Positions 8,312-51,403 of a stretch of 61,855 bases of DNA are shown here, piece by piece. This DNA is from an uncultured Bacteroidota bacterium. Its GTDB lineage: Bacteria; Bacteroidota; Bacteroidia; Bacteroidales; CG2-30-32-10. The stretch spans positions 1 to 61,855 of the forward strand of contig CAISZK010000230.1 in NCBI GenBank assembly GCA_903889915.1, given 5' to 3'. Made by a program: the position numbers and the translations under genes. Below the pieces are notes generated by a model. The model saw nothing but the letters and a program-made list of their open reading frames with translations, was not told the origin of the DNA and ran no database searches. The stretch's first letter is position 1. Each line of letters begins with the position of its first letter.

Positions 8312-8433
8312 TATTGAAATTCAAAATACCAAAATCCAAGAACCAAATTCCAAGGAGTGCATTGAAGTTAAATTATGGTTAATAACTCAAATCGGAGCAA
8401 CTTTGGGACTTGAGACTTGGGTCTTGGTTCTTT

Positions 8434-13852: not shown

Positions 13853-13891
13853 CAACTCACTCCCATTAATTCTCAATAAGTATTAATGATC

Positions 13892-13933
13892 AATGACTAT
13901 TGACCATTGACCATTGACCATTGACTAATGACT
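13892..13933. repeat. Six tandem heptamers (AATGACT, ATTGACC x3, ATTGACT, AATGACT)
   Basis: Read directly from the sequence. They end 9 bp before ATG 13942. Confidence 0.9.
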
Positions 13934-18793: not shown

Positions 18794-19618
18794 ATGCTTA
18801 AAAAAATAAATTCGATACTCAGACATACTTATGAAGATGTTGAAGCGGGTGCAGCTTTGTACAAACAATCATGCGGTAACAAATTAGACAAACGGGTGAT
18901 CATTGTTGCAATCATTTCTGCCATTTCGCTTGTTTTTATTGAGTATGTTGGGAAAGATCCCGGATATAGAATGCTTGTTGATTTCTCAAACAGCATTGGC
19001 CTTACCGGTTTTTCAACTTTTCTTATTCACAATCTCGAACAATCAGCCAACAGTCAGTTGAACCGGCTTGCATTCTGGATAGCCATTATTCTCATTTTTT
19101 ATCTTGCTGTTCCCATCATTACTATAAAGCTTGTCTTTCATGAAAAATTAAGTGACTATGGTTTTAGAATAGGAAATGTAAAGAAAGATTATGGGATATA
19201 TCTTGTGATGATGATCATCATGCTGCCCCTTGTTTACCTGATGTCGCGCACGAATTCTTTCCAGGAGAGGTATCCTTTCTATAATTTGCGGACAGGCGAA
19301 AGTCTCTATCCCAATTTCTGGATGTGGGAAGCCTTGTATTTCCTGCAGTTCATTGGTGTCGAATTTTTCTTTCGTGGTTTTATGCTGCATGGAACGAAAA
19401 GACAGCTCGGGTTTTATTCTGTGCTTTTCATGGTTGTTCCTTATTGTATGATCCATTTTGGGAAGCCCATGCCCGAAACATTTGCAGCAATTATCGCCGG
19501 TCTTGCGCTTGGCACACTTAGCCTTAAAAGCAAATCTATTGTTCCCGGCATTTTGATCCATTACAGTGTTGCCATTGCAATGGATTTTGCCGCCCTTTAC
19601 CAGAAAGGATATTTTTAA
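18794..19618 (+). CDS. CPBP-family intramembrane metalloprotease (CAAX protease-like)
   Basis: A multi-pass membrane protein with GVEFFFRGFMLH (EExxxR-type motif) and a late HYSVAIAMD motif. Confidence 0.75.
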   Translation: MLKKINSILRHTYEDVEAGAALYKQSCGNKLDKRVIIVAIISAISLVFIEYVGKDPGYRMLVDFSNSIGLTGFSTFLIHNLEQSANSQLNRLAFWIAIILIFYLAVPIITIKLVFHEKLSDYGFRIGNVKKDYGIYLVMMIIMLPLVYLMSRTNSFQERYPFYNLRTGESLYPNFWMWEALYFLQFIGVEFFFRGFMLHGTKRQLGFYSVLFMVVPYCMIHFGKPMPETFAAIIAGLALGTLSLKSKSIVPGILIHYSVAIAMDFAALYQKGYF

Positions 19619-19689
19619 TAAAATTTTCAATCAAATTGTTCTCCTAAAAGATGAATTTTGATCAGGTTTTTGATTTTAGATCCATTTTT

Positions 19690-20240
19690 TTATTTTCAAT
19701 TTCTGAATTTTTTAATTCCATTTCAAATTTTAAAATCTAGCCTCATTATCATAAAACCGGATCCTGATAATTGAACTGAATTTTCAAATTGAAAGAATGT
19801 TTTAATCAATTTCTCTGATTTTTCAGCCAAAAATCCTCAATTTTCCCTTTTTTCATTGCCTCTAAAAACAAATTCCTTCAAAGCATCTAATACTGCTTCA
19901 TTTGTTAAGAACCTTGCAATTGGTTGTTGAATAGATAAATGCATTTGTTAAATTCATTGAAAGAGACCAAGTCCTCAGGGAATAGTCTCTTTCCCTTAAG
20001 GAATGGTCTCTTTCCTTCAAGGAATGGTCTCTTTTCCTTAGGGAATGGTTTCTTTCCCTCAAGGAATGGTCTCTTTCCCTCAAGGAATGGTCTCTTTCCC
20101 TCAAGGAATGGTCTCTTTTCCTTAGGGAATGGTTTCTTTCCCTCAAGGAATGGTTTCTTTCCCTTAGGGAATGGTCTCACTCCCTCAGAGAATGTACCTA
20201 TTCACAATGCTAATGTACACCATTCACTTTGGTAAAGTAA
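19690..20240. repeat. Copy A of an unclassified ~550-bp non-coding element (conserved flank plus a 21-bp dyad array)
   Basis: The reverse complement of 19714-19975 aligns with 49609-49870 at roughly 80% identity by eye. The distal boundary TTCACTTTGGTA (about 20223-20235) matches TACCAGAGTGAA (about 49304-49317). Confidence 0.8.
19977..20207. repeat. Tandem array A: 11 units of exactly 21 bp, each (A/G)GGAA-N8-TTCC(C/T)
   Basis: GGAAT recurs at 19979, 20000, 20021, 20042, 20063, 20084, 20105, 20126, 20147, 20168 and 20189. Confidence 0.95.
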
Positions 20241-20421: not shown

Positions 20422-21324
20422 TTATATCCTTTCAAGCACGAATTCAGTTTTTTCCTCCAATGACAATTCTCCTTCAATCCAGATAATGTCAATTCCTTTC
20501 TTTTCCATCCTTCTGAACCATGTCATTTGTCGTTTTGAAAATTGATGTATGGCAATGTTCAATTTACGGAACATCTCTTCGTAGCTTAATTCCTTTAAAA
20601 GAAATTGTGTGATAAATTTATATTCGAGACCATAGGACTTAAGCCTGCTTGCCGGAACTCCGCCATCTATAAGGGCTTTCACCTCATCTATCATTCCATT
20701 TTCAAGCCTTTCTTTCAATCTTAAAGTGATCCTTTCCGTAACGGTGGCCCTTTTATAATTCATTCCAAAAACAAATGATTCAAATTCGGGAACACTTAAT
20801 TTTTTTACTGAATCTGACTTTGAATAATGTTCGATTTCTATAGCTCTTAATAACCGTTCGCGGTTAACAGTGTCGGTGGTATTGTGCAGGGGCTTCAATG
20901 CTGCAAGCAAATCTTTCAGTTCATCATCAGAATTACCTGAAAGTTTTTCTCTGATTTCAGCCATTTCGGGAACTTCTGAAAAAGCATATCCATTTAAGAC
21001 GGATTCAAGATACAGCCCCGTTCCTCCACATAAAATTGGTGTTTTATTTCTTGAAGAAATATCAGTGAATGCTGAAATAAACCACTTTTGAAAATCAAAC
21101 ACACTGAACTCTTCGCCTGCATTGGCAATATCAATAAGATGAAAAGGAATTTTTGTCCCGTTTACAATGTAGTCATCATAATCTTTTCCGGTACCAATAT
21201 TCATTTCCTTAAACACCTGTCGTGAATCAGCGCTGATGATTTCTCCGTTGGTTTTATTGGCAACATGTGCAGCAAGTTTTGTCTTGCCTGTTGCCGTGGG
21301 GCCGAGAATAGTGATAAGTTTCAT
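20422..21324 (-). CDS. miaA: tRNA dimethylallyltransferase
   Basis: MKLITILGPTATGKTKLA, ISADSRQVFKEMNIGTGK. Confidence 0.9.
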   Translation of the reverse strand: MKLITILGPTATGKTKLAAHVANKTNGEIISADSRQVFKEMNIGTGKDYDDYIVNGTKIPFHLIDIANAGEEFSVFDFQKWFISAFTDISSRNKTPILCGGTGLYLESVLNGYAFSEVPEMAEIREKLSGNSDDELKDLLAALKPLHNTTDTVNRERLLRAIEIEHYSKSDSVKKLSVPEFESFVFGMNYKRATVTERITLRLKERLENGMIDEVKALIDGGVPASRLKSYGLEYKFITQFLLKELSYEEMFRKLNIAIHQFSKRQMTWFRRMEKKGIDIIWIEGELSLEEKTEFVLERI

Positions 21325-32619: not shown

Positions 32620-33018
32620 TCACTTATTTTTCTCAATTATATCAAAAGGAATTTTTGCATCGGCATATACTTGCCAAAGCTTGATCTTTTCATTTTCAAC
32701 TATTGCTTTCCAGGCAGCAGGAATATGAAAATGATTGTTCTTATTTAAATTGTTGATGTTGCCAAAAGTACCATCAGCAAAGCCAAAGGCAGCAATGATT
32801 GATTCACTTTCTATGATGTCGGTTACCTCTATTTTATAATCAGGAAACAATTCAAAGTAGCCTTTCCAACCTGCTTTCATTGCAGCCTTGCCTGTAACAG
32901 CATTGTTTTGCGAATCAATAAATGTGTGATCATCCGTCATCAGGTCTGCGATTGCTTCCACATCGTGATCGTTGATAGCACGGGCAAATGCCTGAATTGT
33001 TTTGCTGCTCATGGTCAT
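32620..33018 (-). CDS. SnoaL-like / NTF2-superfamily protein
   Basis: 132 aa. The segment AFARAINDHDVEAIADLMTDDHTFIDS is the typical N-terminal helix pattern. Confidence 0.7.
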   Translation of the reverse strand: MTMSSKTIQAFARAINDHDVEAIADLMTDDHTFIDSQNNAVTGKAAMKAGWKGYFELFPDYKIEVTDIIESESIIAAFGFADGTFGNINNLNKNNHFHIPAAWKAIVENEKIKLWQVYADAKIPFDIIEKNK

Positions 33019-33100: not shown

Positions 33101-33390
33101 ATGATTCAAAATGCTGCAAATTGTGTCAAAATGCTACGAAATGTGACAAAATGCTACGAAATGTGACAAAATGCTGCAAATTGTGTCAAAATGCTACGAA
33201 ATGTGACAAAATGCTGCAAATTGTGTCAAAATGCTACGAAATGTGACAAAATGCTACAAAATGTGTCAAAATGCTACAAAATGTGACAAAATGCTACGAA
33301 ATGTGACAAAATACTACGAAATGTGACAAAATGCTACAAAATGTGACAAAATGCTACGAAATGTGACAAAATGCTACGAAATGTATCAAT
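33101..33390. repeat. Tandem array of 14.5 units of 20 bp (ATGCTACGAAATGTGACAAA), each made of two related 10-bp halves
   Basis: ATGCT recurs at 33111, 33131, 33151 and so on to 33371, with an exact 20-bp period. Five sequence variants are present, and there is a degenerate half-unit at 33091-33100. Confidence 0.95.
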
Positions 33391-33479: not shown

Positions 33480-34505
33480 ATGAAAGCAATGCTATTGAAT
33501 AATACCTCGTCATTTGAGCAGAATCCAAAACCACTGCATATGGTTGATATTCCAATTCCAATTCCTGTTGAAAAGGAGATCCTTATTAAAATAAAAGCCT
33601 GCGGAGTTTGTCACACAGAGCTTGACGAAATTGAAGGCCGCGCAACACCTTCGTTTTTCCCGATAATTTTAGGTCATCAGATTGCAGGCATCGTTGCACA
33701 AAATGGCGCTAATGCGAATAAATTTAAACCTGGTGACAGAGTAGGAGTGGGGTGGATTTTTTCTTCTTGTGGCAAATGCAGCTTTTGTCTGAGTGGACTT
33801 GAAAATCTTTGTTCTGATTTTAAAGCGACAGGCAAAGATGCCAATGGTGGTTATGCGGAGTATATATGTGTTCCCGAAGTGTCGGCTTTCATTATTCCAA
33901 ATCAGTTCAGCGATGCCGAAGCGGCTCCTTTGCTCTGCGGTGGCGCTATCGGTTATCGTTCTTTAAAACTTGCCAATATCAGGGATGGCCAAACCCTCGG
34001 TCTAACGGGCTTTGGTGCTTCGGGTCACCAGGTTTTGCAACTTTCAAAATTCATGTATCCATCTTCAAAAGTTTTTGTCTTTTCAAGGTCGGAAAAGGAG
34101 AGCCGGTTTGCCATGACTCTTGGCGCTGACTGGGCCGGGCTGACAGATCAAACTCCACCTGAACTCACCGATAGCATTATTGACACCACCCCTGCGTGGA
34201 AACCCATTGTGATGGCTTTGCAGTTCCTGAAGCCCGGCGGACGACTTGTCATCAATGCAATTCGCAAAGAAGACGCTGACAAAGATCAATTGTTGACGAT
34301 GAATTACAGGCAACATTTATGGATGGAAAAAGAAATAAAATCAGTAGCAAATATCACCCGCAAAGACATTGAAGAATTTTTGCCTCTTGCCGCTGCAATG
34401 AATTTGAAACCTACTGTGACAACCATTGCTCTTGAAGATGCAAACCAGGCCTTGTTTGATTTAAAGAAAGGCGGATTGCATGGGGCACAGGTGCTGGTTG
34501 TTTGA
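33480..34505 (+). CDS. Zinc-dependent alcohol dehydrogenase (MDR superfamily)
   Basis: CGVCHTE, GHQIAG, structural zinc CGKCSFCLSGLENLC, and Rossmann motif GLTGFGASGH. Confidence 0.85.
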   Translation: MKAMLLNNTSSFEQNPKPLHMVDIPIPIPVEKEILIKIKACGVCHTELDEIEGRATPSFFPIILGHQIAGIVAQNGANANKFKPGDRVGVGWIFSSCGKCSFCLSGLENLCSDFKATGKDANGGYAEYICVPEVSAFIIPNQFSDAEAAPLLCGGAIGYRSLKLANIRDGQTLGLTGFGASGHQVLQLSKFMYPSSKVFVFSRSEKESRFAMTLGADWAGLTDQTPPELTDSIIDTTPAWKPIVMALQFLKPGGRLVINAIRKEDADKDQLLTMNYRQHLWMEKEIKSVANITRKDIEEFLPLAAAMNLKPTVTTIALEDANQALFDLKKGGLHGAQVLVV

Positions 34506-34522: not shown

Positions 34523-34828
34523 TTATTTTATGACTGGCTCTATTGAAACACAGTTTTCAACACACATCTTAAATTCATCAAGGAAAAATGGATTGATGGA
34601 GTAATTGAGTTTTCGATTTATACGTTTTGTTATCAAAATTTTTCCATTTTTCATATCAACCAAGTATTGTGATACGGTTGGTTTTGGCAAATTCAACAGT
34701 GTTGCAATATTCTTTATTTCCAGTTCCCTCTCTTTTTCAAGCAAAGTGATAATTTTGCAATTTACCGGATGCATAAGGTATCGCAAACTTTTCATAAGGA
34801 ATCGTGCTTTTTCTTTATTGAGTTCCAT
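34523..34828 (-). CDS. ArsR/SmtB-like winged-helix regulator, paralog A1 (101 aa)
   Basis: LRYLMHPVNCKIITLLEKERELEIKNIATLLNLPKPTVSQYLVDMKNGKILITKRINRKLNYSINP fits the ArsR HTH_20 pattern. Confidence 0.7.
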   Translation of the reverse strand: MELNKEKARFLMKSLRYLMHPVNCKIITLLEKERELEIKNIATLLNLPKPTVSQYLVDMKNGKILITKRINRKLNYSINPFFLDEFKMCVENCVSIEPVIK

Positions 34829-34882
34829 AATATTTTTTTTAATGGTTATACGTGAATTTTTATTTTTATGAATAAAGGAAAG

Positions 34883-35197
34883 TCAAAATGTTTCCTTACT
34901 GTTATTGTCTGTGGCGAATATCTCGTCAATTGTTTTCAGCAAGTCTTCATGAAAAGTTTGGTTGATGCTATAAAGTACACTTCTGTCTTCGCGTCTTGTA
35001 AGTAATATCCCACAATCCCTAAGTTCTAAGAGAAAGGGGCGAACAATAGAATTATTAGTTTTTAATTCGTTTGCAATCCTGACAATATCCAATTCTTTCT
35101 CTTTTTCAAGCAAATTCAGAATTCTTTTGTTTGTACCATGTAAAAGACTTTTCAAAAAACTCAGGACAGTCTTCATTTTTTCTTCATTGACGTTCAT
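34883..35197 (-). CDS. ArsR/SmtB-like winged-helix regulator, paralog B1 (104 aa)
   Basis: LKSLLHGTNKRILNLLEKEKELDIVRIANELKTNNSIVRPFLLELRDCGILLTRREDRSVLYSIN. Confidence 0.7.
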   Translation of the reverse strand: MNVNEEKMKTVLSFLKSLLHGTNKRILNLLEKEKELDIVRIANELKTNNSIVRPFLLELRDCGILLTRREDRSVLYSINQTFHEDLLKTIDEIFATDNNSKETF

Positions 35198-35369
35198 AGG
35201 GAATTTCTATCAGTTATCGTAAATTAAATTTCAGATATGAATAGTCTAAATTAGCAATACCATTTGAGAATAAACAACCAATACGTAGTCATCATTTTGG
35301 TGATTATTCATACGTTTAGCATTAGCCCCGGCATTTTGCAGTGATTTTTTCAAGGAATGACGCAAAATC

Positions 35370-35675
35370 CTATTTTATGACTAACTCTATTGCAACACAA
35401 TTTTCAACTTTCTTCTTTAATTCATCAAGGAAAAATGGATTGATAGAGTAAATGACATTTCGACCTTCACGTTTTGATATCAAAATATTTCTTCTCTTCA
35501 TTTCAACCAGGTGATGCGATATGATCGGTTGTGGCAAATTCATCACTTGTATAATATTCGTTACATCCATTTTCTTCTCTTTTTCAAGTAAATTGATGAT
35601 TTTGCCTTTCACCGGATGGATAAGGCAGCGCAAACTTTTGATTGCGTACCGTGCTTTTTCATTACTGAATTCCAT
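35370..35675 (-). CDS. ArsR/SmtB-like winged-helix regulator, paralog A2 (101 aa)
   Basis: About 60% identical to A1 by eye. It has the same C-terminus, NPFFLDE.K..VENCV.IE.VIK. Confidence 0.7.
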   Translation of the reverse strand: MEFSNEKARYAIKSLRCLIHPVKGKIINLLEKEKKMDVTNIIQVMNLPQPIISHHLVEMKRRNILISKREGRNVIYSINPFFLDELKKKVENCVAIELVIK

Positions 35676-35729
35676 ATAATTTTTTTTAAAGTTTATAAAA
35701 TTATTTTCACCTTGCCGGATAAATGAAAG

Positions 35730-36044
35730 TCATTGTTTTTCCATACTGCTATTGCCGGTTGTGAAGATTTCATCAATTATTCCTAGTAATTTTTTATGAA
35801 AATTAAGGTTGAGGCTGTAGAGAATACTTCTGTCTTCGCGCCTTGAAACCAAAATTCCTTTATTGCGCATGTCTATTAGATAATGCGAAACGAAATTATT
35901 TGTAACTCTTATTTCTTTTGCAATTCTGTCAGTATCCAATTCTTTTTCTTGTTCAAGCAAATAGAGAATTCTTTTGTTAGTACTGTTTGAAAGACATTTC
36001 AAAAAGCACAGGGCTGTCTTTGCTTTTTCTACATTGATGTCCAT
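35730..36044 (-). CDS. ArsR/SmtB-like winged-helix regulator, paralog B2 (104 aa)
   Basis: About 60% identical to B1 by eye. It shares STNKRIL.LLE.EKELD and IDEIF.T.N.S. Confidence 0.7.
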   Translation of the reverse strand: MDINVEKAKTALCFLKCLSNSTNKRILYLLEQEKELDTDRIAKEIRVTNNFVSHYLIDMRNKGILVSRREDRSILYSLNLNFHKKLLGIIDEIFTTGNSSMEKQ

Positions 36045-36084
36045 AACAAATTTCTTTAAATGGTCGTAGATTGATTTTCAGAAA

Positions 36085-36411
36085 TTAATTATTTCCAAGA
36101 GTTGTTCTATATTTGGGGTCTTGCATTGTAATGCATTTATCCATTTTCTCAGCCAGATCTTTATGAAAGTCTGGATTGATGCTATAGATCATCCTTCTTT
36201 TATTACGTTCTGAAACCAAAACACCTCTGTCTTTCAGTTCAATTAAATAATGCGACACAACAGGCTGTATCAGTTTAATTTTATTCATAATAGTGTTTAC
36301 ATCCAATGCTTTTTCTTTTTCAAGTAAAGTAATGATCTCCCTGTTTACAGGATGGCAAAGACTGCGCAAAGATTTAATGATGTTGTTTGCTTTTTCTGTG
36401 TTTATTTCCAT
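36085..36411 (-). CDS. ArsR/SmtB-like winged-helix regulator, paralog C (108 aa)
   Basis: Intermediate between the two types: HPVN as in the A type and NPDFHKDL as in the B type. Confidence 0.7.
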   Translation of the reverse strand: MEINTEKANNIIKSLRSLCHPVNREIITLLEKEKALDVNTIMNKIKLIQPVVSHYLIELKDRGVLVSERNKRRMIYSINPDFHKDLAEKMDKCITMQDPKYRTTLGNN

Positions 36412-47418: not shown

Positions 47419-49140
47419 CTATTTCGTTTTTATGAAACACTTTTTTTCTGCATAATCATCCACTGAAAGTTTCCAAAAATTTCCTTCCAGTGTGAATCCT
47501 AAATTCTGATAATGCTCTTTCACCATTTCATTCTTAGAAGTAGGGATGAATTCTCCTTTCAGAAATGTACATCCATTTTCTTTGGCTTTTGCAACGATGG
47601 TGTTTAAAACAAAATTTTCAACACCACGCTTCAACACACGGCAGCTCATAAACCAAGTGTCAATAAACAAAGGCCCGCTGTTTTCTTTTTGTAAGATGAT
47701 GACACATATCAACCCATTGTCACCGAATTTATCTTCGAGTGTAAATGCAAATGTGAAATGATTCTTTGATGAAGCGAGTTTTTCGATATCGGCATCAGTG
47801 TAACGAATTGTGCGAAGGTTAAACTGATTTGAACGTTGCGATAGTTGGGCGACCCTCGGTGTGTTGAATTTGTTGAACTCCTCCACCTTCGAGATCATAT
47901 TTAAACTTTTCAGAAAATCATCTTCGTTGGTAAATTTTTTACTAATGCTGACCCTTTGAGCTTCTACCTGGTAAAGCCTGGTTCTTTCAGCATCCTCATT
48001 TGATGAAGAAACCGTTTCAAATAGATTGAGTGAGTAGAGGTATTCAAGATAATCAGCAGGGTCTTCCGGCAATTCAGGAACACAAATTCCGGGGATATTT
48101 TCACGAACCATATTTCTTTCGAAAGGATTGTCGTCAAGGAAAACCATGGAATCAAAACCAATGTTCAGGATGCTTTGAATTTGCCGGATATTGTCGGCTT
48201 TGTTTTCCCAGTTGGCTATAAAAACTGCAATGTCGTCAAGGTGCAGCACCATGTCGGGATGTTTTTCAAATGGCTCTTTGGCCACAGCTTCATAGTTCTT
48301 GCTGCAAACAGCCAGGATGATTCCGCGGTTTTTAAGTTTTTTTATCCAATACTGGAATTCAGTAAACGCTTTCCCAATGCCAAGGCTCCCTATCTTAATA
48401 TTTTCCAAACCATCATCTCCAATAGTGTCGCCCCAAAGGGTGTTGTCGAGATCCAATATCAGACATTTTTTAAACTTCCCGTTTAAAGCTTCAATTATAT
48501 CAAGGGTTTTTGAAGCAACTTGTGGAATAATGTCAATACTCAAAACCATTTCGGTATTGATGTAAACCGAAGGCTGGAAAAAAGTTTTTTTTCCAACTGA
48601 ATTTTGAATTGAAGAAATATCGCAGAGGTAAAGGTTGGCATTCTTTTGGGCAAGCAGCATCAGTTCGTAGTTAAGCTTTCGCAGCTGGAATAAAAAGGAT
48701 GATTCTGTTTTTGTGTTATAATTCCCATAAACAGCATCGTCAATTTCTGTATAGTTATAAAAGATGATCTTCGCGTTGAGGTGCTGGATCAAAGTGGTGT
48801 AAATATTTGCAATTGATCCAAGTTCAGCTTCTGCGAGTGAGCCATGCCTGTTGTTTTCGAGTTTATTGTATTTGCCAAGTAATTTATGCGACGACTGGAA
48901 AATTATAACAATTTCGGGCTTGTGTTCATATAATTCGGAAGTAAAGTCAAAAACCTGTCTTTCGATCTGGTTAAAATCGGCTTCCCAAATTTGCAGATCC
49001 AAACCATTATCAAAACCAAGTGCACGCAATGCCCGCACAAGAAATTGTGTGGTAGTATCGGCCAACAGACAAACTTTGATTTTTTTAAAATTCGAAAAGT
49101 CTTTTTTTAAATTCTTGGTTAATTGGAAAAAATCTTTCAT
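47419..49140 (-). CDS. HAD-IIIC family phosphatase / FkbH-like protein with a C-terminal GNAT-like domain
   Basis: ILDLDNTLWGDTIGDDG (HAD motif I), AVCSKN, FLDDNPFER. Confidence 0.75.
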   Translation of the reverse strand: MKDFFQLTKNLKKDFSNFKKIKVCLLADTTTQFLVRALRALGFDNGLDLQIWEADFNQIERQVFDFTSELYEHKPEIVIIFQSSHKLLGKYNKLENNRHGSLAEAELGSIANIYTTLIQHLNAKIIFYNYTEIDDAVYGNYNTKTESSFLFQLRKLNYELMLLAQKNANLYLCDISSIQNSVGKKTFFQPSVYINTEMVLSIDIIPQVASKTLDIIEALNGKFKKCLILDLDNTLWGDTIGDDGLENIKIGSLGIGKAFTEFQYWIKKLKNRGIILAVCSKNYEAVAKEPFEKHPDMVLHLDDIAVFIANWENKADNIRQIQSILNIGFDSMVFLDDNPFERNMVRENIPGICVPELPEDPADYLEYLYSLNLFETVSSSNEDAERTRLYQVEAQRVSISKKFTNEDDFLKSLNMISKVEEFNKFNTPRVAQLSQRSNQFNLRTIRYTDADIEKLASSKNHFTFAFTLEDKFGDNGLICVIILQKENSGPLFIDTWFMSCRVLKRGVENFVLNTIVAKAKENGCTFLKGEFIPTSKNEMVKEHYQNLGFTLEGNFWKLSVDDYAEKKCFIKTK

Positions 49141-49335
49141 GAAACTGTTTAGAGAAGGCTTTCTTAATATATTACGATTGAATTTTGCAGATGCAAAACT
49201 AAATTAAAATTCTGAATCGGCTGAAAATAAGCAGGAATAAATTGAATAATTTTGTTACAAAAGTGAAAGAGACTATTTTAAATCGCTTTGGAGGGTAAAT
49301 ACGCTACCAGAGTGAAAGAAACCAATTCCTAAGTG

Positions 49336-49368
49336 AGAGGTCTCTCTCCTTTAAGGAGAGAGACCTCT
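49336..49368 (+). terminator. 14-bp perfect hairpin followed by TTTTAAT (terminator-like on the plus strand), built from an array-unit core and its inverted copy
   Basis: AGAGGTCTCTCTCC-tttaa-GGAGAGAGACCTCT. Confidence 0.45.
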
Positions 49369-49386
49369 TTTAATAATTACCTTAGA

Positions 49387-49620
49387 AAATGGAATAATTC
49401 CATTTCGTTACTGAATTGTCTCATTCCCTCACGAAATCGTCTCTCACCGTTACGGAATGGTCTCTCTCCCTTACGGAATCATTTCTTTCCGTAACGAATT
49501 GGTTTGTTTCCGTCACGGAATGGATTCACTCCGTTACGGAATCGTCTCTCTCCGTCACGGATGGGTTTCTTTCCGTTACGGAGATATCTTTCTCCGTAAG
49601 GATTTGGTCTTTTTCAATGA
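49387..49620. repeat. Tandem array B: about 10-11 units of 21 bp, mostly ACGGA(A)-N8-10-TCCGT
   Basis: The unit phase holds at 49391, 49412, 49433, 49454, 49475, 49496, 49517, 49538, 49559, 49580 and 49601. The first unit is the perfect palindrome AAATGGAATAATTCCATTT. Confidence 0.9.
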
Positions 49621-49989
49621 ATTTAACAAATGTATTTAATTATTCGACAATCAATTGCAATGTTCTTAACAAATAAAGTGGCATTAGATGCTTTGAATAA
49701 ATTTGTTTTTAGAGGCTATGGAAAGAGGGATTATTGATGATTTTAAGTTGGAAAACCATGGAAATTCATTAAAACATTCTTCAATTTGAAATTTCAATTC
49801 AATTATCAGGATCCGGTTTTATAATAATGAGATTTGATATTAAAATTTGAAATGGAATTGAGACTGTTCCGAAAAGTAAAAAGAAAAATAAAACCACAAA
49901 AACACCAATTCACTTCACACCGTGGGATATTTGTGCGATTGAAACAAGCTACAAATTTAAAATTATCGCTGTGTAAATTGTTTTTTGAG

Positions 49990-50068: not shown

Positions 50069-51403
50069 ATGAAAAACCTTTGCCTTTTATCCATCGTTTT
50101 ATTTTTTGTTCAACCTCTGAAAGCCCAATGGACAGTTGACCATCTTTCCATAGCCAGATGCTTCCCCGGCGCTGTGACAGTACAGAACAAAGTCTATATT
50201 GCCGGCGGCTACATCAACAACTCCCCCGGAGTAATGTCGAAGAGAATTGATATTTATGATAATTCAACCGGAACCTGGAGTATTGATTCACTCTCGTCTC
50301 CCCGCGGCGATGTAGGCTGTGCTTACCTGAATAATAAAATATTTTTTGCAGGCGGAACAACCAATGCTTTTGGAAGCGCTAAAGAAGTTGATATTTACAA
50401 TTTGCTCACCTCGTCATGGAGTGTTGATTCATTGCAAACTTTCCAGGCATCTGCTGTTCCTGTGGTGATCAATCACCGGATATTATTTGCCGGTGGTATT
50501 GCAACGGGTGGGGTTGGCGTTACAAAGATCATCAGTGTGTATGATGATTCCACGGGGTTGTGGTCTAAAGATTCTCTTTCAATTGGCCGATTTGGACTTG
50601 CCGGCGCAGCAATTGGCAACATTGCTGTCTTTGCCGGAGGATATACAAACACTACAAATTACACTACCATTAACAGAGTTGATATCTACAATTCCTTAAC
50701 CGGGACTTGGACAACTTCCACACTCTCGCAGGCAAGGGGAAATATTTCTGTCATTGCAAACGGAACCAAAATTTATTTTGCCGGAGGGCTTACCAGTGTC
50801 AGCACCAAAGTGCTTTCGAATAAAGTTGATATTTATGATGTGGTCACATCCACATGGACTACAGCAACCCTTTCTCAGGCCCGGAGAAACGTTGCTGTTG
50901 CCACTGTAGGTAATAAAATTTATTTTGCAAGCGGTGAGCAAAATTTTTCCTCAAACACACCCAGCAATAGGGTTGATATTTATAATGTGAGTACTTCACA
51001 ATGGAGCACCGATACTCTTTCAGTTCCTCACGATGCAGCAATAGGTGCTAGTGTTGGAAGCAAAATAATGATTGCGGGTGGCGGCTCTTATTCAACAAAT
51101 TCTTTTTCGAACGTAGTGGATATCTTTGATACAACCAATGCAAATGGCATTAATGAATCTTCTGTCAAAAATTGTTTCACTGTGTGGCCAAATCCTGTAA
51201 ATGATAAATTAAACATCTCCTTTGATGAAAATAGTATTGTAGGAACTATCAATATTTTCGCCATCAATGGGCAAAAGCAAAGTGAAATAAAACTCACGGA
51301 AAATAAGATGGTGATAGATGTCAGTACATTGTCAAATGGAATTTATTTTTTGAAATTTGTCAATGGATCAACTGTGGAAATAAAAAAGATAGTTAAAGGT
51401 TAA
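50069..51403 (+). CDS. Kelch-repeat beta-propeller protein with a T9SS C-terminal sorting domain
   Basis: About seven repeats of the type KIYFAGG...VDIY(D/N)..T..W. The C-terminus reads FTVWPNPVNDKLNISF...INIFAINGQK...LSNGIYFLKF. Confidence 0.85.
   Translation: MKNLCLLSIVLFFVQPLKAQWTVDHLSIARCFPGAVTVQNKVYIAGGYINNSPGVMSKRIDIYDNSTGTWSIDSLSSPRGDVGCAYLNNKIFFAGGTTNAFGSAKEVDIYNLLTSSWSVDSLQTFQASAVPVVINHRILFAGGIATGGVGVTKIISVYDDSTGLWSKDSLSIGRFGLAGAAIGNIAVFAGGYTNTTNYTTINRVDIYNSLTGTWTTSTLSQARGNISVIANGTKIYFAGGLTSVSTKVLSNKVDIYDVVTSTWTTATLSQARRNVAVATVGNKIYFASGEQNFSSNTPSNRVDIYNVSTSQWSTDTLSVPHDAAIGASVGSKIMIAGGGSYSTNSFSNVVDIFDTTNANGINESSVKNCFTVWPNPVNDKLNISFDENSIVGTINIFAINGQKQSEIKLTENKMVIDVSTLSNGIYFLKFVNGSTVEIKKIVKG

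Follow-up and report, generated by a model that had tools for sequence, protein, structure and literature searches.

Palindromic 21-bp arrays with a mirrored arm change in an inverted non-coding element of an uncultured Bacteroidota bacterium

BrickBuilt, a minisatellite-carrying miniature inverted-repeat transposable element of Porphyromonas gingivalis (Klein et al. 2015), is built from 23-nt repeats without spacers and a leader of up to 285 nt; it is always intergenic, has 19 copies, is confined to P. gingivalis and the sister species P. gulae, and shows a strain-variable number of repeats, stem-loops of dyad symmetry, no Rfam match and irregular target-site duplications (PMC4596501). Repetitive extragenic palindromes (REPs) form other families of clustered extragenic palindromes, with an unpaired GTAG or CGTC tag and in some cases stems of 5 bp, for which roles in termination, mRNA stability and protein docking have been proposed (Di Nocera et al. 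2013, PMC3733652). Here we describe a non-coding element of ~0.5 kb, present in two inverted copies that lie 29.5 kb apart in 61,855 nucleotides of DNA from an uncultured Bacteroidota bacterium (assembly GCA_903889915.1, contig CAISZK010000230.1; this whole stretch is called the window below). Each copy contains one array, A or B, of palindromic 21-bp units, and the palindromes of the two arrays differ by a change that appears on both arms. BrickBuilt seems to be the closest known analogue, with a likeness in build and not in sequence. Our tentative reading is that a lineage-specific selfish repeat has A and B as its minisatellite cores, and that its dyad may be kept by hairpin-templated copying and turnover of the arrays.

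Two arrays with a mirrored arm change

Tandem Repeats Finder placed array A at 19973-20194 (period 21 bp, 10.6 copies, 86% matches, and also a higher-order repeat of 84 bp) and array B at 49406-49597 (period 21 bp, 9.1 copies, 69% matches, 1% indels), which agrees with the position of B, and with the period common to A, given in an earlier reading made from the letters of the DNA (the sequence-only reading). In a common register, A is made up of 11 units of 21 bp on the forward strand (19971-20201, consensus TCCCTCAAGGA-ATGGTCTCTT) and B of ten units, individually degenerate but without indels (49404-49613, forward strand, consensus TCCGTTACGGA-ATGGTCTCTT). The plan of the unit is the same in both arrays: an 11-bp palindrome, TCC-N4-T-N6-A-N8-GGA, is followed by a 10-bp asymmetric core, ATGGTCTCTT, and the units abut head to tail with nothing between them and with no indel over the 21 units of A and B. 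Within the window TCCNTNANGGA occurs 14 times against 0.86 expected, and the arm-core-arm pattern GGAATGGTCTCTNTCC, with up to three mismatches, 18 times against 1.1 expected, each occurrence lying within or adjoining the arrays.

The two consensus sequences differ only at position 4 (C in A, G in B), position 6 and position 8 (A or G in A, C in B). Positions 4 and 8 form a mirror pair of the palindrome, which reads TTCCCTTAGGGAA in A and TTCCGTTACGGAA in B, and position 6 is its centre. The change that the sequence-only reading had reported on both arms thus falls exactly on mirror positions, and complementarity is kept (C:G to G:C); the two units quoted as examples, TACGGAA-tcatttct-TTCCGTA and TACGGAGA-tatctt-TCTCCGTA, were recovered at 49472-49494 and 49577-49598. 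The second stem pair had been given as G:C or A:T throughout A, but A is not uniform: pair 4/8 is C..G in five units, T..A in one and an unpaired C..A in five. Array B has G..C in 7 of 10 units, C..C at 49425 and 49467, and G..G at 49593. The hybrid unit reported at 49452-49472 is present but is not the sole one, as three units are half-converted, and both possible single-arm intermediates (C..C and G..G) still exist in the array. The observation of two palindromic arrays with a matched arm change is therefore confirmed.

As the arms alternate in orientation, two pairings can be drawn, P1 across the 1-nt centre and P2 across the core of 8-10 nt. The latter is the hairpin of the sequence-only reading, a 6-bp stem with an 8-nt loop; the arms do pair across the core in this way, but the same letters are equally readable as a tight 11-bp palindrome with a 1-nt centre. 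In the 19 two-unit windows of one alignment P1 is 87% paired and P2 80% paired, both clearly above slid controls, with T5 and A7 (the outermost pair of P2) invariant and the unpaired linker N6 free. Under either pairing a single pair varies on both sides, being GC in 7, CG in 3, UA in 1 and unpaired in 6 of 17 distinct units. The covariation check that had been proposed, run on the A and B units together, thus yielded one mirrored pair, but only 1 of 5 arm pairs, and shuffled controls were only moderately exceeded: they reached the observed value in 4-11 of 500 cases for P1 and in 26-36 of 500 for P2, and by the covariation tool's own caution such values can also be attained by related sequences that have no structure. 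Since all B units descend from one array, the mirrored change counts essentially as one evolutionary event, for which a naive chance estimate is ~0.01. No further copies that could enlarge the covariation sample were found in the GTDB genomes, Joint Genome Institute (JGI) contigs, viral contigs or protein collections searched.

The two arrays also differ in how their changes are distributed. Non-consensus cells in array B number 10 of 100 in the arms, 28 of 100 in the core and 5 of 10 at the centre (arms versus core, Fisher p = 0.002); in array A arms and core are alike, with 11 of 110 each. Array A is young and homogenised, and array B is older and degenerate. Counted from the unit tables, mismatches would be G.U wobbles in 4 cases on the forward strand and 7 on the reverse strand; with no strand-consistent bias, RNA is not indicated. 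Selection on the dyad itself, as the sequence-only reading had it, is partly supported: the dyad is real and its arms are better kept than the core in B, but there is one covarying pair and one event. The accompanying argument, that simple repeat drift would not produce such a pattern, overlooks a non-selective route, namely template switching in quasi-palindromes combined with array turnover.

Anatomy of the element and its closest analogues

Each array adjoins a leader of ~270 bp. The leader of copy A (19684-19970, forward strand) is a non-repetitive, AT-rich flank in common with copy B, with sharp homology from 19708-19714, and that of copy B (49614-49889, reverse strand) is its reverse complement; the two are 81-85% identical in a pairwise alignment, and as inverted repeats 19684-20003 and 49571-49889 are 81% complementary. 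Copy B is bounded by a perfect 11-nt inverted repeat, whose inner arm at 49396-49406 (forward strand, AATTCCATTTC) is 100% complementary to the outer arm at the leader end, 49849-49859 (forward strand, GAAATGGAATT). The leader end of copy A has the same 11-bp end repeat, AATTCCATTTC, at 19714-19724 (forward strand), and its far-end partner is degenerate (GAGAATGTACC near 20188, 7/11).

Unit-like sequence runs on outside the inner arm of copy B. Two to three degenerate units in the opposed orientation (49263-49335, reverse strand; for example 49263-49277 and 49314-49333) abut array B, and are either a truncated third copy or an opposed sub-array. In keeping with their orientation, 20005-20060 and 20089-20144 are inverted repeats of 49310-49365 (73-75% complementary), and 49314-49339 has an inverted-repeat match at 49548-49573. 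Where unit orientation flips lies a perfect hairpin of 16+16 nt (49336-49372, forward strand), composed of a core, TCCTTTAAGGA and an inverted core (49336-49368) and followed by TTTT, so that with its 100% complementary arms it is terminator-like on the forward strand. Read from the leader, copy A has one AGAGACCA core-like motif at the leader boundary (19959-19970), opposite in orientation to the A units, and then 11 units with the core motif TGGTCTCT; copy B has ten AGAGACCA-type cores, the palindrome GGAATTATTCC, the 16+16-nt hairpin with its T-run, and the opposed units. Viewed from the leader that they share, A and B thus carry the core motif TGGTCTCT in opposite orientations, but the arms of both copies keep phase with that leader. 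Either the array was inverted between its own inverted arms, or two opposed sub-arrays were expanded differently in each copy.

The element is non-coding. The longest open reading frames (ORFs) through A and B share neither a frame nor a direction relative to the common leader, and a 35-aa ORF whose length is conserved in both leaders has a ratio of nonsynonymous to synonymous change (pN/pS) of 1.8 and is thus not coding. Of the ORFs called by gene finders within the arrays, the 86-aa one of B has no relatives among 5.8 billion proteins, and the 91-aa one of A matched only unrelated marine KRPF-repeat peptides. A search of the whole window against Rfam gave no match at the gathering score, and at E <= 1 only sub-threshold hairpin look-alikes; there are no tRNA genes in the window, and no consensus structure with compensatory support emerged for leader RNA, the two sequences giving weak AT-rich folds in which 1-3 of 53-64 pairs are double changes.

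In build the element resembles BrickBuilt in many respects: both are from Bacteroidota, are intergenic and consist of spacerless repeats of about two helical turns (23 nt there, 21 bp here), with a non-repetitive leader (up to 285 nt there, ~270 bp here), short inverted repeats at the ends (here perfect in copy B only), a repeat number that varies between strains, stem-loops, no Rfam match and a narrow lineage range. Promoter-like elements in both directions are a further likeness, although here these are sequence matches only, and in copy B. The core, read on the reverse strand as GAGACCATTCC, matches 10/12 of an IS5-family insertion sequence (IS) end, GAGACCATTGCA (ISPg1, PMC4596501). This match sits inside the repeats and not at the ends of the element, and may be chance or a trace of an origin from an IS end; an array found elsewhere in a Bacteroidota genome (L022/L052, see below) has TAGACTATTG at the same position. 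The two elements differ in that there is no sequence homology between them, in that two full copies and one truncated copy, all intergenic, are found in the 62 kb here (two to three copies, against 19), in that the present element has no significant tail similarity between its copies and no target-site duplication and has intact end repeats in one copy only, and in that its unit is dominated by a tight 11-bp palindrome and no IS5-family transposase is encoded in the window. On these likenesses, the element may be considered a further case of the BrickBuilt kind, having many of its descriptive features but not target-site duplication; a conserved tail, intact ends in both copies and a high copy number are at most possible.

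Other systems fit less well. Short extragenic palindromes, often clustered and with units in both orientations, are also seen in REPs and the bacterial interspersed mosaic elements composed of them, but the strict head-to-tail period of 21 bp differs from the head-to-head dimers that predominate in REPs; GTAG is absent from the units, and CGTC occurs only in the 3 of 10 B units in which the free centre base is C. The element thus lacks the tag that defines REP families. A Pfam scan of the 50 ORFs of the window found no RAYT (an IS200-like tyrosine transposase associated with REPs), nor any recombinase, other transposase, rep/par, cas or CsrA genes. Plasmid iterons and centromeres (F sopC, R1 parC, pSK41 parC) consist of tandem units of ~20-43 bp that are bound cooperatively by protein dimers, and the helix-phased tandem units with internal dyads or half-sites are shared with the arrays; here, by contrast, there is no initiator or partition gene, the setting is one of chromosomal housekeeping genes, and the two diverged arrays occupy unrelated intergenic contexts. 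With CsrB and RsmZ the arrays share many ANGGA repeats (AAGGA, AGGGA and ACGGA) within a few hundred nucleotides, but in every predicted fold the GGA is in paired arms and not in loops, and no defined promoter or terminator surrounds the arrays. CsrB, RsmY and RsmZ had no match in Rfam even at E <= 1, and to our knowledge no CsrA occurs in Bacteroidota. Regularly spaced short palindromic repeats also recall CRISPR loci, from which the arrays differ in that their units abut without spacers. The partner genes of the iteron, centromere, CRISPR and Csr systems are all lacking in the window.

The window is an ordinary piece of Bacteroidota chromosome that encodes proteins with type IX secretion system (T9SS) tails, a TonB-dependent receptor and a ComEC-like protein and contains miaA, lpxB, surE and purC. 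The gene ends on either side of copy A are convergent, those of a CAAX-protease-like gene (18794-19618, forward strand) and miaA (20422-21324, reverse strand), and copy B lies between the divergent starts of an FkbH-like gene (47419-49140, reverse strand) and a Kelch/T9SS gene (50069-51403, forward strand). The Bacteroidota -7 promoter box has the consensus TAnnTTTG, of which there are six matches in the intergenic region of B and none on either strand of that of A. Two of the six are well placed for the flanking genes, and the others point into and out of the element. One putative box, TAATTTTG (49247-49254, forward strand), ends ~8 nt before the degenerate inverted units; another, TACATTTG (49627-49634, reverse strand), points into array B, and the corresponding site of copy A, TGCATTTG, does not match TAnnTTTG.

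How the dyad may be kept

On the reading that we tentatively favour, that of a selfish minisatellite element, each copy would consist of a short end repeat, a unique leader of ~270 bp and a run of 21-bp units, and would formerly have been able to disperse, while the arrays would grow and shrink through slippage or unequal exchange. In the single-stranded DNA (ssDNA) of replication the arms could fold back so that one arm templates the other, and units with an intact dyad would preferentially be re-amplified. Such template switching in quasi-palindromes is established in E. coli, where a single step carries a change over from one arm to its partner. Starting from an ancestral AGGGA/TCCCT unit, a transversion on one arm would have been mirrored to the other and the resulting ACGGA/TCCGT unit would have spread through array B, the three half-converted units being leftovers of that spread. 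The dyad would then be upheld by the dynamics of the repeat itself and not by a dedicated host function, and effects on the host, such as hairpins that stop or stabilise transcripts or the promoter-like boxes of copy B, would be by-products. What the data show directly is the anatomy, the lack of coding, the mirrored consensus change with its half-converted units, the variation in copy number, the restriction to one lineage and the better-kept arms of B; we infer the template-switching step, the preferential amplification, mobility in the past and the lack of any host function. In favour of this reading are the two-copy inverted element itself, the perfect 11-bp inverted repeat that bounds B and the truncated opposed copy with its hairpin; recent turnover in A, visible in the 84-bp higher-order repeat and in a difference of 7 versus 11 units between assemblies; the unrelated genomic contexts of A and B, with boxes in the B region only; and the tolerance of a mismatch at pair 4/8 in half of the A units, together with a single covarying pair. 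Further points on its side are the non-coding character, the lack of an Rfam match, the restriction to one lineage, a consensus difference confined to the centre and the mirror pair with single-arm intermediates present, and the occurrence of a like set of features in BrickBuilt.

Several observations weigh against it. The arms of B are 2.8-fold better conserved than the core (p = 0.002) in units that have diverged in place, and because arm-to-arm copying alone would leave the per-site rate of change unlowered, this points to constraint (a function) or else to a higher mutability of unpaired loop bases. The 21-bp phase is unbroken by any indel, which fits the need of a DNA-binding protein for helical phasing. 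Better-kept arms and strict phase, the main evidence on this side, are also expected of an array of sites for a dimeric protein, and less so of selected hairpins. Mobility is only presumed, with two to three copies, a degenerate end repeat in copy A and no transposase in the window; similarity in the tails beyond the far ends of the arrays was not above that of shuffled sequences (50/300), and no direct repeat that could be a target-site duplication flanks the candidate ends of either copy. Template switching, moreover, is carried over to this locus from what is known of mutagenesis in E. coli and is inferred by that analogy.

A phased operator array is possible, though we consider it rather doubtful. 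Each 11-bp TCCNT-N-ANGGA would be the site of a dimeric DNA-binding protein (a host regulator, a nucleoid protein or a former transposase), with sites every two helical turns and dimers on one face of the helix; as identical subunits read both half-sites, a specificity change from AGGGA to ACGGA would have to appear on both arms. Besides the strict spacing, such sites would account for arms that are conserved in sequence beyond complementarity while the centre is free (5/10 non-consensus) and the core of B variable, for the lack of a strand-consistent wobble bias, and for arms that stay in phase with the leader despite the core flip, which is neutral for a palindromic DNA site. B moreover lies in a divergent promoter region, and five paralogues of the ArsR-type winged-helix family, which is typically dimeric, are encoded between the copies at 34523-36411, an opportunity only and not a link. 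Yet A, set between convergent gene ends, has no promoter box, half of its sites are imperfect at position 4/8, and isolated palindromes of the array type were found nowhere else in the window, the region upstream of the ArsR-like genes included; the nearest relative lacks the arrays, and no common gene stands beside comparable arrays of other genomes. The hairpin array of the sequence-only reading, in which each transcribed or single-stranded unit would form a 6-bp stem with an 8-nt loop and pairing would be selected, for example for transcript stability, termination or protein docking, seems to us unlikely. Both strands of both arrays fold far better than shuffled sequences (z = -2.9 and -5.5 for A, -9.5 and -9.5 for B), but this is trivially expected of inverted repeats and does not distinguish the strands. 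The pairing across the core is 80% intact with T5/A7 invariant and N6 free, and there is one compensatory pair; it is the only covarying pair, however, and 6/17 units are unpaired there, with A.C mismatches equally frequent on either strand. A putative -7 box, TACATTTG, is directed into array B, but A is without any box, its corresponding TGCATTTG giving no match, and there is no Rfam family. The loop, too, faces opposite ways in A and B as seen from the leader, and an RNA driven from the leader would therefore expose different loops in the two arrays.

It is improbable that the opposed units encode a small RNA for which the arrays serve as sponge or target, although the parts are in place for a candidate of ~110 nt (49262-49372, forward strand) with a single-stranded seed antisense to the 21-bp unit, which would pair with forward transcripts carrying A (as a 3' extension of the 18794-19618 gene) or B (by read-through). 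The putative -7 box at 49247-49254 precedes it and the perfect 16-bp terminator hairpin with its T-run (49336-49372) ends it; its predicted fold has a 5' hairpin and leaves GAAAGAAACCAAUUCCUAAG unpaired between two hairpins, and the predicted duplex with the forward strand of array A has -32.4 kcal/mol against -12.1 +/- 3.4 for shuffled seeds. That complementarity, however, is what any inverted partial copy of the array has by construction, no -33 element is evident, and the candidate is conserved only among near-identical strains. Were the reading true, a regulator and the sites that it targets would both have arisen from one repeat element. Replication iterons or a centromere-like partition site, on the model of plasmid iterons, sopC and parC, are very improbable: a unit of about two helical turns with an internal dyad, in ten or so copies beside an AT-rich flank, would suit them, but the 62-kb window holds no rep, par, plasmid or phage genes, GC skew shows no switch between the copies (so that a replication origin or terminus between them was rejected as well), and the units contain no DnaA boxes. 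We give hardly any credence to a protein-coding heptad, a reading that is already disfavoured. TCC GTN ACG GAA TGG TCT CTT would encode S-V-T-E-W-S-L, in which the free centre would fall on the synonymous third position of the valine codon; the S-V-T-E frame is indeed open through all ten degenerate B units (ORF 49416-49676), the N6 variants T, C and A all give valine codons, and the variants of A read K/R and L/F. But in A this frame meets a TAG in the first unit and lacks a start codon, A and B disagree in the frame of their longest ORFs and in the direction of these relative to the leader, third-codon positions 3 and 9 are as invariant as other arm positions, unlike 6, changes show no 3-periodicity (17 at third, 12 at first and 14 at second positions), and no related protein exists among the 5.8 billion searched.

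If the selfish-element reading is right, this would be a second, independent case in Bacteroidota of a dispersed non-coding element that carries a palindromic minisatellite. Its consequences would be few, for assembly (several contigs end at the copies or next to them), strain typing (the number of units varies) and local transcription. The locus offers a small, clean case of a mirrored palindrome change with its intermediates, on which arm-to-arm copying and selection for a dyad might be told apart; and if a protein or a small RNA does read the units, the arrays would be a natural pair of specificity variants.

Strain variation, lineage range and other repeats

At least five other lake metagenome assemblies contain contigs that are collinear with the window and match it at 99.8-99.96% identity; the source populations occur in JGI samples 3300009175, 3300022555 and 3300025316 and in the lake metagenomes of Buck et al. 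Array B showed no difference among them, four other assemblies having it letter for letter, and array A has lost four units in one other assembly through a clean 84-bp deletion (7 units versus 11). The contigs of several assemblies end at or beside the copies of the element: in several independent assemblies the ends lie just outside the outer edges of both copies (19643-19665 and 49897-49898), and one contig in the European Nucleotide Archive spans exactly 19643-49897. Another (L014) diverges after 19808 (range 19808-19812), within the leader, into 33 nt that are absent from the window and begin with GCATGAAGAAAATGAGCATAG. Together, the contig ends and this divergence suggest a structural variant in co-occurring strains. 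The two copies bound 29.5 kb of housekeeping genes as inverted repeats, a layout that could allow inversion of the segment; all 14 contigs of other assemblies are collinear with the window, and inversion was thus not seen.

Beyond these strains the element was not encountered. A pattern of two arms plus core gave 0 matches in 185,579 GTDB species genomes, 0 in viral contigs and, in JGI metagenome contigs, one chance match without an array; a 23-mer of the leader gave 0 matches in viral contigs, the leader had a single chance match of 36 bp among plasmids, and a literature search for the palindrome sequences gave primers only. The nearest relative reached, through an FkbH-like neighbour of 89% aa identity, has the locus without the array, as does a relative of 77%, although the FkbH-like protein is too conserved to be a good marker of close relatives. 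Given its presence in near-identical strains only and its absence from the nearest relative, the element is young and lineage-restricted. Upstream of the FkbH-like gene of that nearest relative (L060, ~430-470) stand one perfect hairpin, CGGAACGGATT-gatta-AATCCGTTCCG, whose arms are of the B type, ACGGA/TCCGT, and three dispersed copies of GAAGYTTCGGRACTTTC.

A core-agnostic pattern, three TCCNTNANGGA at a 21-bp period, found 38 heterogeneous loci in many phyla among the GTDB genomes, some of which are coding heptad repeats (e.g. EVGSIKD, SMMEDDD) and many of which are intergenic arrays. Intergenic 21-bp arrays of TCCGTSACGGA occur in Verrucomicrobiota (Akkermansia, Prosthecobacter and others; L026, L033, L037, L039, L041, L048, L049, L053, L058 and L059), in one Treponema (L046) and in one Bacteroidota genome (L030). 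None of the outside arrays shares flank homology or a neighbouring gene with the window, and as their homology to A and B is unproven they were excluded from the covariation sample. Positions 4 and 8, which the pattern leaves free, are complementary in 12 of 21 non-coding-looking outside families against 25% expected (p = 0.002); at positions 5/7 of the Verrucomicrobiota arrays T..A, C..G, T..G and C..A all occur, without clear covariation. The outside loci do show that arrays of 21-bp units with a dyad recur.

An almost identical unit, TCCGTYACGGACAAAACCTTT, is present in Akkermansia, Prosthecobacter and further Verrucomicrobiota; the alternating orientation of the spacers in Prosthecobacter makes the array its own reverse complement, and S-V-T-E/D heptads can be read on both strands of the TCCGTSACGGA arrays. 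Across phyla, the units of L036 (Methylococcaceae) and L052/L022 (a Bacteroidota metagenome-assembled genome) share TCCATSACGGATAGAC, 15/16 bases. L022 and L052 are the same unit twice in one genome, with no common flank, each with an inverted terminal unit.

Within the window, the ArsR-like genes at 34523-36411 (reverse strand) are five tandem paralogues that encode small winged-helix proteins of 101-108 aa, 32-59% identical, near the midpoint of the segment bounded by the copies of the element. A third, unrelated array at 33107-33384 repeats a 20-bp unit, CAAAATGCTACGAAATGTGA, 14 times, each unit being made up of two 10-bp half-units (CRAAATGYKA), and lies between a SnoaL-like gene (32620-33018, reverse strand) and a divergent alcohol-dehydrogenase-like gene (33480-34505, forward strand). 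Small intergenic repeats seem to abound in this genome: (AAATCCA)n and (TTGGGWC)n stand ~50 bp apart at 8317-8432 between convergent genes, and (TGACCAT)n at 13865-13932 upstream of 13921.

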